Both the position numbers and the translations under genes were made by a program. From Occultella glacieicola (GTDB taxonomy: Bacteria; Actinomycetota; Actinomycetes; Actinomycetales; Beutenbergiaceae), in contig NZ_SMNA01000001.1 in the NCBI RefSeq assembly GCF_004353825.1, positions 434,001-498,000 of the forward strand: a DNA stretch of 64,000 nt, in the 5' to 3' direction. The notes beneath the pieces are model-generated. The model saw only the letters and a program-made list of their open reading frames with translations, searched no databases and was not told the origin of the DNA. Shown here in pieces: positions 4,267-47,822 of this stretch (its first letter is position 1; each line of letters starts with the position of its first letter).

Positions 4267-4734
4267 TCAGTCGACGCTGTCGAGGCGGGCGATCTCGTCG
4301 ACCGCGTCCAGGACGGCCCGCACGATCGGGACGTCCAGCGACAGCCACGTGACCGAGTCGACCTCGCTGAGGTCCAGCCAGCGCAACTCGTCGTGGTCCG
4401 CGAGCGGAGCGGGGTCGCCGTCGGTGATCCTGGCCAGCCAGACCCGCATCCGGTGTCCGTGCAGGATCGGCCAGTCCGTGTTGTCGGGGCCGTCCGGCCC
4501 GGGGACGGCGGTGCCGATCGCGACCTCCACGCCGAGTTCCTCCCGTAGTTCCCGACGCAGGGCCTCCAGGTCGTCCTCACCGGGTTCGACCTTCCCGCCG
4601 GGGAACTCCCACTGGCCGGCCAGCGACTTCGGAGCGCTCCGGCGGGCTGCGAGCAGGCGGGCGGGCGCGTCGAGGTCGTCGAGGATCGCGGCGGCGACCA
4701 CGAGGGAGCGAGGGGCTGACGTCATGTCCGCCAT
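4267..4734 (-). CDS. NUDIX hydrolase, MutT-like (deoxy)nucleoside triphosphate pyrophosphohydrolase
   Basis: Nudix box WEFPGGKVEPGEDDLEALRRELREELG. Confidence 0.9.
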   Translation of the reverse strand: MADMTSAPRSLVVAAAILDDLDAPARLLAARRSAPKSLAGQWEFPGGKVEPGEDDLEALRRELREELGVEVAIGTAVPGPDGPDNTDWPILHGHRMRVWLARITDGDPAPLADHDELRWLDLSEVDSVTWLSLDVPIVRAVLDAVDEIARLDSVD

Positions 4735-4748
4735 CGTATCGACCCCGC

Positions 4749-5075
4749 CTATCCACAGACCTTGTGCACAGGTGTGTGTATCGCCGGCGTTTGCGCAGGT
4801 GACGCTTGTGGAGCCAGTAGGCGACGAGCGTGTGGAACCAGTGGGCGACGAGCGAACGACGCCACGGTGGCGAGCACGTGTCCGGTGGGTGTCCGGACCC
4901 TGGGTCCGGCCGGCGAGCGGATGCCCGTGCCGGCGGCCCCCGGAACGGAGCGCCGGGTGGGTCCCACGGCGCCGTCGATGCCCGGGTTATCCACAAATTT
5001 GATCCACACCTGTGTGCACAACCGGCATAACCGCAGGTGAACCTGTGGAACGAGCTGTGGGTCAACTGGGGATAA
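4749..5075. promoter_or_regulatory. Cluster of DnaA boxes (not at dnaA)
   Basis: Perfect TTATCCACA 4987-4995; one-mismatch boxes (vs TT[A/G]TCCACA) at 4749, 4762, 5000, 5013(-), 5067(-); further perfect box at 5368-5376 and one-mismatch box at 5691(-). Confidence 0.7.
4807..4854. repeat. Tandem 24-bp direct repeat (2 copies, 22/24 identical)
   Basis: TGTGGAGCCAGTAGGCGACGAGCG / TGTGGAACCAGTGGGCGACGAGCG. Confidence 0.85.
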
Positions 5076-5095
5076 AAGAAAGCTCGGTGAACCCC

Positions 5096-5124
5096 TTGCG
5101 AACGGTCAGTGACGTGACTAGACA
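5096..5124 (+). promoter_or_regulatory. Putative sigma70-type promoter for the candidate ncRNA
   Basis: TTGCGA (5096-5101), 17 bp spacer, TAGACA (5119-5124); the -10 lacks the last conserved T. Confidence 0.35.
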
Positions 5125-5129
5125 TAACC

Positions 5130-5847
5130 CATCGAGTTCACCGACTCGGTCGCAGAGGAGGAGCACAGGCTCATCGGATGCGGGTTCGAGATCCAGGGCA
5201 GAACCGGGAGTGATCCCAGGGGACGTCAGGGAAGACGGGCCGGCACTGATGTGGCGGAGTTCAGCCGAAGCGGTCGGACCACCGGACGGGTCAACCGTTC
5301 GATGGGGCGGTAGGCGGTACTGGAAAGGCAATGATGTCCTTGCAGGCTCGGACGGCGGGGAGACCCGTTATCCACAGAGCAGGGCTCGGATGCACAACCA
5401 GCAGCGCCGACTGTACGGATCCCGGACAGCCCGGGCCCTAGCAAGTGAGGAATCGGGGAGACCCGAATCCGAACACCGCGGGGTCAGGATGGACCTTGAT
5501 CCGGACAGAGTGCGGATCCTGGGACGCTGGGACCGTGCGCACCGCGTCGTCGCAGGAGTTTCGGCTCGGCAACGACGCAACCGTGTGACCCTGGGACGCC
5601 GGGGACCCACACACCCGCATCAGCGGACTCGATGCCCGGAGCGGATCCCGACGATGAACCGGTCGGTGGACTTGGTCCACGGATCGGGGGTGTGGATGAC
5701 ACCCGCATCGCACGGCCCGGATCGGGTACCTGTACCAGGGAAGGCTCACTGCTCAGGCAGGCGCAGCCGGCGGGCTCATCCCCAGCCGCTCATCGCCCCG
5801 GTACAAGCAAGGCCCCTCGGACGCTTACTCCGAGGGGCCTTTGCTTT
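5130..5847 (+). ncRNA. Candidate large structured non-coding RNA (~720 nt), family unassigned
   Basis: No credible CDS; many hairpins with GNRA/UUCG loops (GGGA-GTGA-TCCC, CGGG-GAGA-CCCG twice, GAGT-TTCG-GCTC); ends in an intrinsic terminator. Confidence 0.55.
5809..5847 (+). terminator. Intrinsic terminator
   Basis: 13-bp perfect stem AAGGCCCCTCGGA / TCCGAGGGGCCTT with 7-nt loop, followed by TGCTTT. Confidence 0.8.
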
Positions 5848-5960
5848 GCCCCTCCATCTTGACGGGTCCGCGGTGCCACACACGCACCGACACACCCATC
5901 CGCGGTGAGACGTTCGCCACGAAGCGGGGTCCGTCCCCCGGACGCCGTTAGGGTGGAGCC

Positions 5961-6728
5961 GTGATCGAACTCAAGACTCCCGCCGAGATCGAGGCGATGC
6001 GACCGGCCGGTTCCTTCGTGGCAGGTGTGCTCACCGCGTTGCAGGAGGCGGCCGGTGTCGGCGTCAACCTTCTGGAGCTCGACAAACTCGCCCATGGGAT
6101 GATCCGCGACGCCGGCGCCGAGTCGTGCTACATCGATTACCACCCGAGTTTCGGGGCGAGCCCGTTCGGCAAGGTGCTGTGCACCTCGGTCAACGATGCG
6201 GTGCTGCACGGGCTCCCGCACGACTACACCCTGCGCGACGGCGACCTGCTGTCCGTGGACTTCGCCGTCAGCGTGAACGGCTGGGTCGCCGACTCCGCGC
6301 TCAGCATCGTGGTCGGCACGCCGGCGGACGAGGACCTGCGGCTGATCAAGACCACCGAGCTCGCCCTCGAGGCCGGCATCAACGCGGCCACGGTCGGCAA
6401 CCGGCTCGGCGACATCTCGGCCGCGATCGGTGAGGTCGCCGCCGCGAACGGCTACGGAGTGAACACCGACTTCGGTGGCCACGGGGTCGGGCGTACCATG
6501 CACGGCGAACCGCACGTGCCGAACGCGGGCCGGGCCGGCCGGGGCATGCCGCTGCGCCCGGGGCTGGTGATCGCCATCGAGCCGTGGTTCATGCTCGGCA
6601 CCGACGAGATCTACACCGACCCGGACGGTTGGACGCTGCGCTCCAAGGACGGCTCCCGCGGCGCGCACAGCGAGCACACGATCGCGGTCACCGCGGACGG
6701 CCCGGTCGTCCTCACCGCGCGCGACTGA
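5961..6728 (+). CDS. map: Type I methionine aminopeptidase
   Basis: CTSVNDAVLHGLP, DGDLLSVD, GWVADSA, GHGVG..MH, AIEPW, AHSEHTIAVT. Confidence 0.96.
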   Translation: MIELKTPAEIEAMRPAGSFVAGVLTALQEAAGVGVNLLELDKLAHGMIRDAGAESCYIDYHPSFGASPFGKVLCTSVNDAVLHGLPHDYTLRDGDLLSVDFAVSVNGWVADSALSIVVGTPADEDLRLIKTTELALEAGINAATVGNRLGDISAAIGEVAAANGYGVNTDFGGHGVGRTMHGEPHVPNAGRAGRGMPLRPGLVIAIEPWFMLGTDEIYTDPDGWTLRSKDGSRGAHSEHTIAVTADGPVVLTARD

Positions 6729-19006: not shown

Positions 19007-21364
19007 TCAGTTGCCGGCGGTGGGAACCGTTTCCAAGTATGGGTGATAAGCGTCGTGAATCTTGAGCCTTTGTTCGGGCACCCGTGGTTGCACCCTCCGC
19101 GCCAATGCCTCGACCCGTTCACTTTCGCTTCCGACCTCCGGGTAAACGAAGTCATTTGCATGTGCTTCCGGCCCCAGCACGCATATCGATATCAGCTTTT
19201 CGATCGTTCGATCCACGCGGTCCTCCGCAATACCTGCCTCCACCAGCCCAGTCGACAACTGCGCACGAGAGAGGATGGCAGGAGCGCCTAAGAGAGAGTA
19301 CAAAGCGCTTCGGAGCTCGGGAACAGTAACCCCGTTCTCCACCAACAGCGCATCGAACGCATAGTTAGAGTACACCTCGCGTGCAGCAATCATGTCGCTA
19401 CACGTTATCCTATTATTGCCGCGGTCAATGGCGCTTGCTACGGCCGCGTTCGCCAAGACCAGGACATCTCTGGGTCGGGGTTGAACGCTCGACGCTATGA
19501 ACGTACGCGTATCGATGTCGTTAACCTCTGGCGGAAAGACTTCGTCCCACACGCTCTTGCCTGGCCGTCCGCCGGCTTTGACTTCGTACCGAGCCTCGAG
19601 CACGTGCAGCAGAGTATTGGCGTCCTGCCATTTCACGGTTGAGAGAGGGAGCTTGTCGGGCTCACGAGCCTCGGTGCGCAGGTAGTGATAGATGTCGCTG
19701 CGCAGGAACACGGACACTGTCAGGCGCACTCGGTCGCGCCACCAATCTTGGCGATCAAAATCGCGCACTACGTTGCCTCGGGCCACGAGCAGACCCAGGA
19801 TGAACTTCGCCACTAATCGCAAGTCGACATTCTTGTCCCAACCTTTATCGAGGTTGTCGACAAGAATTGCGACTCGCCTCCGCGTGCGGAGCACGCCTCC
19901 GAGGACAGACCGCAACTGATTGAGCGCCTGTGCGTGAAACGCCTCATTGATGAGGTCCCGCCGAGGTGAACTCGAGTCCCCAGACGCGACTCGGTGCGAC
20001 AAGTGGTCGAGTGTCTGCTCAAGTCGTGTCGAGATGTCTGCGCGAAGGTCGAACGGCGCGTTCTCAACGTAGTTGATGAACCGTTGCTCGTCAGCACTCA
20101 CCGGGATGGTCGGGCCTCGTGCGTCGATGGCTTGAAGGACCGCAGACCCGACTTCGGATTGTATGACGAAGCGCCAGAGCGCATCGAAAAAGTAGTCCTG
20201 TTGTCCAGCAGGAAGGCTCATGACGGTCTCGAACATGGCTGGGAACTCGAAGGCGGGCGGTTTGATGAGGACTACGAGGTTCGTCTTGTTTGCGCGCAGG
20301 TGGTCGAGTGCACGAAATGCATTCGCCGTCTTACCTGTCCCCCGGTGGCCAACGAAGATGGTGTCCCGCGCATCGATGACGTCGTTGTAAGCTGACGTTT
20401 CGACGAAGTATTCGGAAAGTTCATTCAACTCATTCTCGGCAACATGCTCTCCGAATTTGAGGAGCGAGAGAGGGTTCCTTGGAGAACGTCGGGGCCTACT
20501 CCAGTCAACGCCTTCGAACGGCAGCGAGTCGAGCCAATCTCGAGCGAGTTGCACGCACTCTCGGGCGTACGTGTACTTCTGCAGAAGGGCCTCGTAGTCG
20601 AACGGGGCGTCGTACTCGGGTTCGGCCAACATGAAGATCGGCGTATCCAAACCGCGTGCTAGTCCAGCTGCAATGGCGTGCCGAACATTTATGACAGTGG
20701 ATCTGTTCCTGTGTGGTCCTGCGAAGTGAATCAGTACGCCAGCACTACGCATGATTGATGGGGCGAGCCAAGTTATCGGCTCAAAACTTGACTCCTTTGG
20801 ATCGGAGACTAAGACTTGAGTGCCGCGCTTGCGACGCTCATCGATGAATGCGCTCAATCGTGAGGATGCTTCGAAAGGGTCGAATGTAGGACAGTAGAGC
20901 AGGGAATCGCGCGGCTCTGAAACCTCAGGGAGGCTTGGCTCCAGCAAGTCGTCGTAGGCGGTCCTTTCATCTTCCCACGGAGTACTCTCAAGAAGATGTG
21001 AGCTCAAGTCGGTACTGTTGAAGTAGGAGGTATAGCCCAGCGGTTTCAACGTGGACAACTCGTTGAAGTCTTGCTTGCCGCTAGTCACAGATTGGTCGAG
21101 AAGGATTCGGATCGACTTTCCCCGTGCCATTGCATAGCCGAGCTCAAAAGCGACGTTTGAGTTGAGTTGGGTTAGATCGAATACGGCCGAGGCAGATTGG
21201 TCGATTTGAGAGAGGACTCGTGAAATTACCACTCGTCCGTCGACGTCCAGATCTTCCCAACTCTTGGCAGACACGCCTTGCTGGATGAGTTGGGTGACGG
21301 TGCGTCTCATCGTGTCGCCGATACTCCGTGGGCTACTAGGGTAGCCAAAGAACACGTCGATCAT
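19007..21364 (-). CDS. Tandem NDT/TIR-like domains + Sll1717-family P-loop ATPase (candidate defence protein)
   Basis: N-term VFFGYP..FDLTQLNSNVAFELGYAMARGK; GEHVAENE..YFVET; Walker A GHRGTGKT; Walker B ILVDNLD; FLRSDIY; RPRDVL; visibly lower GC than flanks; SD GGGAGG. Confidence 0.78.
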   Translation of the reverse strand: MIDVFFGYPSSPRSIGDTMRRTVTQLIQQGVSAKSWEDLDVDGRVVISRVLSQIDQSASAVFDLTQLNSNVAFELGYAMARGKSIRILLDQSVTSGKQDFNELSTLKPLGYTSYFNSTDLSSHLLESTPWEDERTAYDDLLEPSLPEVSEPRDSLLYCPTFDPFEASSRLSAFIDERRKRGTQVLVSDPKESSFEPITWLAPSIMRSAGVLIHFAGPHRNRSTVINVRHAIAAGLARGLDTPIFMLAEPEYDAPFDYEALLQKYTYARECVQLARDWLDSLPFEGVDWSRPRRSPRNPLSLLKFGEHVAENELNELSEYFVETSAYNDVIDARDTIFVGHRGTGKTANAFRALDHLRANKTNLVVLIKPPAFEFPAMFETVMSLPAGQQDYFFDALWRFVIQSEVGSAVLQAIDARGPTIPVSADEQRFINYVENAPFDLRADISTRLEQTLDHLSHRVASGDSSSPRRDLINEAFHAQALNQLRSVLGGVLRTRRRVAILVDNLDKGWDKNVDLRLVAKFILGLLVARGNVVRDFDRQDWWRDRVRLTVSVFLRSDIYHYLRTEAREPDKLPLSTVKWQDANTLLHVLEARYEVKAGGRPGKSVWDEVFPPEVNDIDTRTFIASSVQPRPRDVLVLANAAVASAIDRGNNRITCSDMIAAREVYSNYAFDALLVENGVTVPELRSALYSLLGAPAILSRAQLSTGLVEAGIAEDRVDRTIEKLISICVLGPEAHANDFVYPEVGSESERVEALARRVQPRVPEQRLKIHDAYHPYLETVPTAGN

Positions 21365-21625: not shown

Positions 21626-22561
21626 TTACGCGACCTCCGGGATGGGGGTCACGGGCGTAGCCTGCCGGTGAGCGTGTTCGAACTCAATGGGTGGCAGTTG
21701 CCCGATTGAGGAGTGGAGGCGGTCGTGGTTGTACCAGTGGACCCAGCGGGCGACTTGCCACTCGACCTCAGCGTGGTTCTTCCAGGTCGGTCCACCGTCG
21801 TTGATCGCCTCGGTCTTGAACAGCCCGATCGTCGACTCGCACAGCGCGTTGTCCAGCGCATCACCGACGGTTCCGATGGATCCGGCGATGCCTGCCTTGG
21901 CCAGTTCGGCGGTCAGCACCAGCGAGACGTATTGAGACCCGGCATCGGAGTGGTGGACGAGCCGGCCGCGCTCCCAGGTTGCTCCGGCGCGGTGACGCGC
22001 GTCGATCGCCTGGCGCAAGGCGTCGGTGACCAGGAAGGCGCGCATGCTTGTGGCGACTCGCCAGCCCAGGATGCGGCGGGAGTACACGTCTACGACGAAG
22101 GCGACGTAGATGAACCCGGTCAGCGTCCAGACGTAGGAGAAGTCGGCCACCCACAGCTGGTCAGGCGCGGTGGGCACATGCCAGCCGCGCTTGACCAGGT
22201 CGGGATGCCGTGGCGCCTCGGCCGACCGGCGGGTCGTGGTGGTGCGGTGCCGTCCCCGGATCGCGCCCGTGATCCCGGCGATGGCCATGAGCCGGGCGAC
22301 CTGATCGCGGCCCACGTCCAGGCCGGCGCGACGGGCGGCGTGCCACAGCTTGCGCACCCCGTACACGCCCCAGTTCTCCCGGTGGAGCGTCACCAGAGCG
22401 TTGGCCAGGTAGGCCCCCTCCAGCAGCGCCGTGCTCACCGGCTGAGACTTGTGGGCGTAGTAGGTGGACGGCGCGATCTTCATTCCATGCTGAGTTAGCA
22501 CGGCGCAGATCGGCTCGACGCCGAACCGGTCCCTGTAGGTGTCGATGTAGGCCACGATCAC
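21626..22561 (-). CDS. IS3 OrfB, DDE transposase core
   Basis: YGVRKLW, LWVADFSYV, HHSDAGSQY, DNALCESTIGLFKTE, WYNHDRLHSSIG. Confidence 0.93.
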   Translation of the reverse strand: MIVAYIDTYRDRFGVEPICAVLTQHGMKIAPSTYYAHKSQPVSTALLEGAYLANALVTLHRENWGVYGVRKLWHAARRAGLDVGRDQVARLMAIAGITGAIRGRHRTTTTRRSAEAPRHPDLVKRGWHVPTAPDQLWVADFSYVWTLTGFIYVAFVVDVYSRRILGWRVATSMRAFLVTDALRQAIDARHRAGATWERGRLVHHSDAGSQYVSLVLTAELAKAGIAGSIGTVGDALDNALCESTIGLFKTEAINDGGPTWKNHAEVEWQVARWVHWYNHDRLHSSIGQLPPIEFEHAHRQATPVTPIPEVA

Positions 22562-22883
22562 TTGAGTCGGCGGTCGAGCTCCGCCTGAGCGAAAACGCTG
22601 ACGCGGTCTTGAGGATCTCGTTCGCGCGCTCCAGCTCGGCCACGCGCTTCTTCAATGCGCGCACCTCCTCGGACTCACTCGAGCGAGCGGCCGCAGGCCG
22701 GCCGCCGCCGGCGCGCTCGGCCTCCTCAATCCAGTTCCGCAGCGTCGCGGGGTTAACGTCCAGGAGCGAGCCGACATGCTTCCGGGCTCCCAACTTCGAC
22801 TCGGTGCCCTCGGCGAGCTTCTCGCGGTACATCCGCACCGCCCGCTCCCGAAACTCACCGTCGTATCTCCTCGGTGCTGACAT
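22558..22883 (-). CDS. IS3 OrfA (HTH); 3' end apparently frameshifted, reads on to 22161
   Basis: RRYDGEFRERAVR..TLRNW..ELERANEILKTASAF; the typical tail AQAELDRRLK* lies in a different frame. Confidence 0.8.
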
Positions 22884-38846: not shown

Positions 38847-38857
38847 GTCTCATTGCG

Positions 38858-38928
38858 AGCGGGTGACGAGAATCGAACTCGCGCTATCAGCTTGGGAAGC
38901 TGAAGTTCTACCACTGAACTACACCCGC
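38858..38928 (-). tRNA. tRNA-Gly (anticodon CCC)
   Basis: GCGGGTG acceptor stem, D-arm GTTC/GAAC, anticodon arm TCAGC-TTCCCAA-GCTGA, T-arm GCGAG-TTCGATT-CTCGT; 71 nt, CCA not encoded. Confidence 0.97.
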
Positions 38929-47562: not shown

Positions 47563-47668
47563 GCGGGCTCCTCGGATTGCGGGTCGGCGCCCCCAGCCTA
47601 TCCGTCAAGGACCGCGCACCGCCCGGCGAGGCGAGCACCCGGGCGCGGTGTACGGTTGAGCCCACAAA

Positions 47669-47752
47669 CGACAGGGGAGCGCGACAGCGCTGAGAGTGCG
47701 GCCCGCCGCAGACCCTCGAACCTGCACCGGTTAGCACCGGCGAAGGGAGTCG
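47669..47752 (+). ncRNA. TPP riboswitch
   Basis: GGGG..GCTGAGA..GACCC..GAACCTG..CCGG-TTAGCA-CCGGCGAAGGGA core, upstream of a thiamine ABC transporter. Confidence 0.93.
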
Positions 47753-47822
47753 AGTCTTCTCTCCCAGGTGGCGTTCACGCGCCATCTGGACCCCTTCTCA
47801 ATGTCCGTTGAGGAGGAAGCAC

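Follow-up and report, generated by a model that had tools for sequence, protein, structure and literature searches.

Organization of the NUDIX-map Intergenic Region

The window, by which we mean the whole 64,000-nt stretch of Occultella glacieicola DNA that was analysed, has its longest gene-free stretch at positions 4735-5960 (1226 nt, measured between coding-like frames), as an earlier note on this DNA had pointed out and as holds once the 785-aa ORF at 19007-21364 is counted as coding. On one side lies a NUDIX hydrolase gene (4267-4734, minus strand) with a predicted leaderless promoter suggested by the motif TACGAT (4743-4738, minus strand), and on the other side map (peptidase M24; 5949-6728, plus strand), which is likely leaderless as well and carries its own -10-like TAGGGT (5949-5954), with the GTG at 5961 following after 6 nt. 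Two clusters of DnaA boxes occupy the gap. The first (4749-4812) is 95% identical in two congeners and overlaps the predicted NUDIX promoter (window 4738-4812), which may itself be DnaA-controlled; the second (4987-5075) forms with the first the densest cluster of the genome. A plus-strand TGTGGA box core (5044-5049), whose full 9-mer is degenerate here, sits 52 nt upstream of the -35 element of a predicted plus-strand promoter (5074-5125). This promoter comprises an A-rich tract (5074-5081) and the previously noticed pair of motifs, TTGCGA (5096-5101) and, after 17 nt, TAGACA (5119-5124), extended by a T to 5125. A sigma-70 consensus scan of the locus reported neither a promoter nor a terminator; position 6 of the -10 is not the usual T, and the tail of U residues is short.

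Downstream of this promoter we predict a large non-coding RNA of approximately 718 nt (5131-5848, plus strand), with A5131 as the start given the promoter spacing. All the hairpins listed in the earlier note are present (5131-5150, 5206-5217, 5354-5369, 5453-5466, 5544-5578, 5666-5680 and 5688-5704). Three of them (5206-5217, 5354-5369 and 5453-5466) are GNRA-capped and represent a module found in 0-11 copies per homolog. Two GACG-loop hairpins flank the UUCG-capped arm (5544-5578) within a region (5517-5603) that is present only in the long forms of the family. The core is a three-way junction (5645-5722) in which the hairpin at 5688-5704 bears the loop GGAUGA (5694-5699), complementary to the loop UCAUCC (5776-5781) of a hairpin at 5769-5790 and, thus, predicted to form a kissing-loop pseudoknot. 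The 5' arm (5130-5137) could alternatively pair with 5627-5634. The RNA ends in a 3' hairpin (5803-5848) with a stem at 5809-5821/5829-5841, a conserved 7-nt loop (5822-5828) and U-rich tails on both strands. The stem is indeed a perfect one of 13 bp, but its reading as a plain terminator is disfavoured by the conserved loop and a predicted convergent antisense promoter. The latter is predicted on the minus strand (5856-5893) from a WhiA-type GTGTC (5893-5889) followed after 27 nt by CAAGAT (5861-5856), and would produce an antisense hairpin RNA of about 50 nt (5798-5849, minus strand, ends approximate) whose loop complements the 3' loop of the large RNA. Elsewhere in the window we noted the ALIL frameshift pseudoknot of an insertion sequence (22469-22599), a tRNA-Gly(CCC) (38857-38928) and a TPP riboswitch (47663-47765).

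A Widespread Family of Predicted Non-coding RNAs

The plus strand of the locus folds with a z score of -4.7, compared to -2.6 for the minus strand (20 shuffles each), and the RNA body without its terminal hairpin scores -4.5 (40 shuffles). Identity to two congeners reaches 92% in the RNA, 86-89% in map and 62% in the spacer at 4830-4980. The 298-aa open frame that spans the region (5012-5908) behaves as non-coding, in agreement with the original proposal: it is interrupted by frameshifts or stops in 3/3 congeners, its GC3 is 0.65 versus 0.92 in real neighbours and it has no Pfam match. Besides this frame, two other mRNA readings can be considered: a 5' leader belonging to map, and a type I toxin message opposed by a convergent antitoxin, an arrangement for which convergent transcripts with a common bidirectional terminator, as in pAD1 par, would be the precedent. 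Yet small hydrophobic ORFs are found in 0/137 units and 37 units are devoid of any closed 12-80-codon ORF; therefore, the large RNA is not a type I toxin message. Nor is it a leader, because the downstream genes differ and are often in opposite orientation, and map has its own leaderless-type -10 and is thus not fed by the large RNA. The mRNA reading is largely refuted and we give it hardly any credence.

Homology searches recovered a family of at least 125 distinct promoter-to-hairpin units across the class Actinomycetes. The earlier size estimate of about 720 nt fits the window unit, but length varies among the homologs (135-809 nt). When 41 genomes were searched at the DNA level, 16 had a match, and 13 aligned sequences have the DnaA boxes, promoter, 5' start and 3' hairpin in common. 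A sequence model of boxes plus promoter matched 30/36 genomes of the window's own family, 32/151 in the order and 23/151 in the class; a broader model matched 76/151 class genomes, approximately 50 over the promoter and the remainder over the boxes only (these class tallies take in G191, a box-only match on which no claim depends). Independently, a pattern describing the 3' hairpin matched 43/151 class genomes and none of the controls, and 40 of 49 hairpin-pattern places (counted by hand) sit 100-1000 nt downstream of a promoter-model match. Named genomes contributed at least 126 pattern stretches, including Cellulomonas, Actinotalea, Demequina, Kribbella, Jiangella and Pedococcus; Frankiaceae, Streptosporangiaceae and Nanopelagicales are further taxa among the matches listed. 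The promoter profile was present in 73 of 80 long-flank stretches among the matches listed, from which the profile was partly built. Some hairpin matches come from records labelled Bifidobacteriaceae, Actinomyces, Streptomyces, Brevundimonas and Rubrivirga (L139, L151, L164, L213 and L250); L164 resembles the Kribbella form, and these labels possibly reflect mislabelling or misbinning.

Among the families searched, six (f41, f44, f52, f53, f54 and f26) yielded no member: f41 had matches in 0/9 genomes and f53 had box-only matches, the sole type of match also seen outside the class. As f41 and f53 are the two large families that include the 7-10 Mb genomes and those bearing Ms1, the RNA is not essential class-wide. 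Furthermore, the common model actinobacteria apparently belong to families without it, a possible reason for its having been overlooked. Neighbour genes vary between families and often face away (60/73 flanking frames scanned). Hence, the MutT-like NUDIX neighbourhood that had been proposed as a landmark is kept within the window's own family but is replaced by different neighbours in other families. A mobile element or integration site was rejected because no match turned up among 50,697 records of phages and 72,556 of plasmids, nor in IMG/VR, and extra hairpins are better explained by an antisense promoter; a REP-like repeat was rejected because this genome has just one true copy.

Copy number varies in other members. 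Whole-unit paralogs occur in tandem pairs at L145, L167, L170, L171, L182, L190 and L205 and as a triplet in G170 (L260/L254), next to a lone antisense-type hairpin, and G460 has a third unit copy elsewhere. The existence of homologs, the covarying pairs, the bias to one strand, the interrupted ORF and the turnover of adjacent genes all support the note's central proposal of an independent structured non-coding RNA near DnaA boxes, with its transcription predicted. No published description of the family was found in the literature covered, which includes few of the subscription papers and supplements. We are highly confident that this is a real, and apparently undescribed, family of non-coding RNAs.

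Structure of the Large RNA

Covariation, as had been suggested, was informative. Among the 124 pairs predicted for 11 long forms, 43 show changes of both partners, compared to 27.8 when shuffled (0/500 shuffles as high) and 10-13 in slid controls; the counts are to be read with the structure predicted from the same alignment and with relatives that are not independent. GNRA hairpins are strongly biased to the RNA strand, with 320 on the plus strand, 14 on the minus strand and 26-58 in shuffles. The module has expanded in tandem within some RNAs, to up to 11 GNRA hairpins (L080, L082, L085, L086, L130, L202 and L329). These compensatory and G-U changes, the GNRA strand bias and the loop conservation need selection acting on an RNA.

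Tertiary contacts are also predicted. Loop-loop complements of at least 6 bp are present in 25 of 78 units versus 4.2 when shuffled, 11 of the 25 being one Kribbella-type pair, and distant groups differ in the sequence of the loops. Within the window's own family, the predicted kissing pair (5694-5699/5776-5781) forms over at least 5 bp in 18 of 21 sequences (shuffled mean, 5.1) and fails in G024, G020 and G319. The kissing loops are nearly invariant in this family, and cross-genome pairs fit equally well, so that covariation support comes solely from distant groups. The richness in GNRA hairpins (0-11 per unit) and the excess of loop-loop complements would also be expected of a self-assembling, RNA-only scaffold built through GNRA docking and kissing loops, the latter of which, with A-minor contacts, build the ROOL and GOLLD cages in the accessible part of the source (PMC12286853). 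But minimal forms of 135-200 nt, the free variation in length, the few invariant bases outside the 3' hairpin and the lack of a phage or tRNA-island context make such a cage highly improbable.

DnaA Boxes and the Sense Promoter

We scanned the genome with what we take to be the DnaA-box consensus and counted, at 4749-5075, six boxes with one mismatch at most in 400 bp; oriC has four. The same boxes mark the dnaA-dnaN gap and the regions before genes that, by eye, read as dnaB, gyrB and crgA. These other clusters are on contig G000:C11 near 110479, 125198, 129491, 131314 and 193324, followed in order by crgA/rhomboid, gyrB, the dnaN-dnaA gap, dnaA and dnaB (by eye); the first of them (crgA/rhomboid, near 110479) resembles the Rv0010c-Rv0011c site of M. 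tuberculosis. Repeated TTGTCGACAA palindromes at G000:C7 34207, 44561, 47734 and 63333 are not DnaA boxes but presumably operators of a GntR/FadR-type regulator.

Across the family, a box core lies 52-53 nt upstream of the -35 in 85 of 115 units (94 of 115 if 54 nt is admitted), as it does at the window locus (52 nt). The -10 is mostly TA(G/C)A(A/C)(A/C)T and has no T at position 6. A spacing this fixed suggests direct control by DnaA, and a box at a conserved distance from the promoter is the signature of DnaA regulation that we looked for; we hold such control to be probable, although its sign could be either. Transcription of the large RNA itself is predicted with high confidence. Eight units (L128, L151, L161, L185, L193, L204, L327 and L328) have the promoter and the 3' hairpin but no DnaA boxes.

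The density of boxes raises the alternative that the DNA is the working part, as a datA/DBC-like site for DnaA titration tuned by transcription, to which the RNA would be secondary. Sites of this type are known (datA, D78 and DBCs, according to the parts of PMC3479198 and PMC7738170 available), and G015 retains the boxes without the RNA. The location is origin-biased, too: the distance to dnaA is 308 kb here and below 0.4 Mb in 6 of 11 genomes, with three above 1.3 Mb. Titration does not, on the other hand, explain units without any boxes, nor the RNA-level selection required by the compensatory and G-U changes, the preference of GNRA hairpins for one strand and the conserved loop, making it a distinctly improbable account of the locus. 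In the case of G015, the boxes remain between NUDIX and map (L055) and the RNA gene is gone. Box clusters without the large RNA, promoter or hairpin were also noted at L261 (G308), L256 (G291) and L257 (G196); by eye, the G308 cluster is between genes reading as pheA and serS and the G291 cluster adjoins a superoxide dismutase-like gene. The identification of the box cluster with Streptomyces D78 was unsupported, as the G308 clusters adjoin different genes, and neither the promoter nor the hairpin accompanies them. DnaA-box-like 9-mers are, furthermore, present inside 23 of 137 RNA units (0.70/kb versus 0.09/kb genome-wide), with a perfect one at window 5368.

The 3' Hairpin and Its Predicted Antisense Partner

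A 3' hairpin with a 7-nt loop on a stem of at least 9 bp was identified in 119 of 125 units. The search pattern left two pairs free, and at these 136/136 matches are Watson-Crick, with all four forms seen. The loop CUCAUAC is kept on unrelated stems in four distant units. A plain terminator would not need a loop of this kind, suggesting that the hairpin does more than terminate. The commonest loop, CUCAUAC, looks like a Met anticodon loop, a likeness broken by the variants CGCUUAC, CCCUUAC and UCCCUAG.

Nine places matched by the hairpin pattern had no upstream promoter match; the six fetched were lone hairpins and two were units without boxes. All six lone hairpins have on the opposite strand the motif GCGTGTC and, 27-28 nt later, a -10 pointing into the hairpin. 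Extending the analysis to 201 distinct hairpins, 90 have a WhiA-type motif at a distance of 45-95 nt from the loop, compared to an expected 7% and to 19 hairpins with the motif in reverse orientation. A [TC]ANNNT element follows 26-29 nt past the motif in 53 of the 90, versus 1-7 in shifted windows and 3.2% genome-wide. Under a strict rule, the antisense promoter is present at 45 of 143 main hairpins and missing at 98. At the 16 loci with an extra hairpin, the same rule assigns the promoter to the extra copy 11 times, to neither hairpin five times and never to the main copy, counts that overstate independence because two-hairpin loci are mostly related Cellulomonas-type records; by eye, the five loci with neither have a promoter further out or a variant motif.

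Some antisense genes have apparently moved. Sense and antisense loops are complementary by construction in cis, and they are so with different stems in trans copies. Family f35 provides the example: the main loop CUCAUGC complements the trans loop GCAUGAG, on differing stems, in 4/4 genomes with both fetched. In G010, the large RNA is elsewhere and the hairpin and its promoter stay between NUDIX and map. The trans copy and its promoter were not found in four of five genomes searched, including two complete Kribbella genomes. Two hairpin copies lie close together at L150 and L197, where no large-RNA promoter was found.

These observations could also arise if the opposite-strand motif served the neighbouring genes, the 3' hairpin were a bidirectional terminator and the extra copies were duplication scars, such as the existing tandem paralogs could leave. 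In Streptomyces, GACAC is the WhiA site and can function in both orientations and from differing distances (PMC3781837, PMC10243135), so that GACAC at 5889-5893 could serve map; the promoter is, in addition, missing at the 98 main hairpins noted above. Against this, the -10 keeps a constant distance of 26-29 nt on the hairpin side of the motif, lone copies retain the promoter that the main copy has lost, and loops remain complementary as the stems diverge. We consider the neighbour-serving motif improbable and favour an antisense gene: the hairpin RNA is a likely partner of the non-coding RNA family, and we think it likely, from its promoter and loop, that it is transcribed.

The regulator of this promoter is a finer question. 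The genome encodes whiA, and the GACAC(GCC)-type motif occurs with a fixed -10 spacing; the WhiA site is a prediction from a short motif without a genome-wide spacing peak, since TANNNT 27-29 nt after CGTGTC shows none here (3/2689), and the assignment thus depends on that motif. In M. tuberculosis, where the WhiA motif is GACACGCC, genes for replication and division are under the control of WhiA and WhiB2, according to the available part of the source (PMC13473873). On balance, we lean towards control of the antisense promoter by WhiA.

A Proposed Link Between Replication and Division

Plasmid RNA I and RNA II pairs meet through loops. By analogy, the best explanation that we can offer, and a tentative one, combines a large RNA driven by DnaA with an antisense hairpin driven by a WhiA-type site, the large RNA being a scaffold with feedback on the cell cycle. 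Binding of DnaA 52-53 nt upstream would likely switch on the large structured RNA, and the opposite-strand WhiA-type promoter would likely make the hairpin RNA of about 50 nt. The hairpin RNA would then kiss the 7-nt 3' loop of the large RNA and inactivate it, a step that we judge somewhat more plausible than its absence. With DnaA drive and a WhiA-type antisense, the large RNA would accumulate when DnaA is active and disappear at the onset of division. It would most likely be a multivalent protein-binding scaffold, with DnaA or RNA polymerase as putative partners (a guess), and its feedback on the cell cycle is possible but falls short of probable.

The model draws on what can be read from sequence, namely conservation, covariation, strand bias, the lack of an ORF, the fixed box spacing, the spacing of the opposite-strand motif and -10, and the split of function between hairpin copies. 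Together these point to a conserved, non-coding, covarying sense/antisense gene pair whose two RNAs are predicted to be expressed. Generalized to the class, it becomes an RNA toggle in which DnaA would write the scaffold RNA, WhiA/WhiB would erase it via the kissing antisense and the RNA would gate the next initiation or division; this extension is speculative, and the full cell-cycle model ranges from speculative to tentative.

At the very least, the locus reveals a widespread family of large structured RNAs with no Rfam match. If the model is correct, a single RNA pair brings together two master regulators, DnaA of initiation and WhiA/WhiB of division, which would provide an RNA link between chromosome replication and cell division. 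Many of the DnaA regulators described in other bacteria are not known from actinobacteria. The coupling of replication and division in actinobacteria is an open question that the RNA pair would address, and Cellulomonas and Kribbella, among other harmless genera that can be cultured, allow direct tests of the pair.

Comparison With Known RNAs and DnaA-site Systems

The window returned a best Rfam 15 match of 20 bits (E 0.07), below the gathering threshold, and 45 homolog-bearing loci returned no near-threshold match on the unit at E values up to 0.5-1, in keeping with the earlier note, which saw no hallmarks of several known RNAs. Motifs of RNase P and SRP RNA found nothing; RNase P RNA was then placed by a model search and, like tmRNA, is located elsewhere in the same genome, so that the window RNA is neither.

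RNA polymerase-binding RNAs deserve closer consideration, as an Ms1-, 6S- or CoRP-like function, with DnaA and the antisense merely setting the level, would suit an independent, structured RNA of 135-809 nt in a genome (G000) where neither 6S nor Ms1 was detected. Ms1 (RF02566) was rejected as to its model, synteny, local profile and two motifs, found in 1 and 0 of 137 units, and the window RNA itself has neither the motifs nor a profile match, as had been surmised. A weak Ms1 match in G295 sits at a locus separate from the large-RNA unit. The large RNA resembles Ms1/scr3559 in being an independent actinobacterial structured RNA, and Ms1 loci have a similar TTG..17..TACAAA promoter. In contrast, 0/9 Ms1 loci have any of the DnaA boxes found upstream of the large RNA, and Ms1 adjoins a HAD-IB hydrolase gene, unlike the NUDIX/map flanks here and the varied ones elsewhere. 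Ms1 has been predicted in many related families (PMC9130861, in the part accessible), and the supplementary candidate list of that study could include some large-RNA loci. The 6S RNA was rejected because there was no RF00013 match and the fold is branched rather than a rod with a central bubble. CoRP demonstrates that unrelated RNA polymerase-binding RNAs of about 500 nt exist in actinobacteria; as described in the accessible portion of the source (PMC11077062), it is confined to Corynebacterium and encoded between tRNA genes. Like CoRP, the large RNA is intergenic, structured and missed by Rfam-type searches, but its family is broad and not located between tRNA genes, and the two are set apart by synteny and description. 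With the Ms1 motifs, profile and rod-like fold all lacking, binding to RNA polymerase as the main function is unlikely, if still worth considering, and we retain the DnaA-driven scaffold with its antisense partner.

Other large RNAs were also rejected. The raiA motif RNA, which the available part of PMC10861870 places between raiA and comFC, had no Rfam match and the large RNA is not next to these genes; OLE, ROOL and GOLLD had no Rfam match for the window or the 45 homolog loci. The large RNA shares with all four that it is large, covarying, likely pseudoknotted and stand-alone, and differs from them in its predicted antisense partner.

Antisense kissing control is exemplified by ColE1 RNA I/RNA II and by pAD1 par, whose convergent promoters share a bidirectional hairpin. 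The large-RNA system resembles both in pairing a large folded RNA with a small complementary hairpin RNA through 7-nt complementary loops, and par in particular in the convergent promoters around one bidirectional hairpin. Unlike these systems, the locus is chromosomal, has no plasmid, phage or IMG/VR match and no toxin ORF, its antisense gene can move and its promoters bear DnaA and WhiA-type sites.

Finally, clusters of DnaA boxes away from the origin include datA, the DBCs of B. subtilis, D78 of Streptomyces and the Rv0010c-Rv0011c site of M. tuberculosis, as far as the accessible parts of the sources describe them (PMC3479198, PMC7738170). The locus has in common with these sites its dense, non-origin DnaA boxes but is distinguished from them by the fixed register of the boxes with the promoter of an RNA gene.
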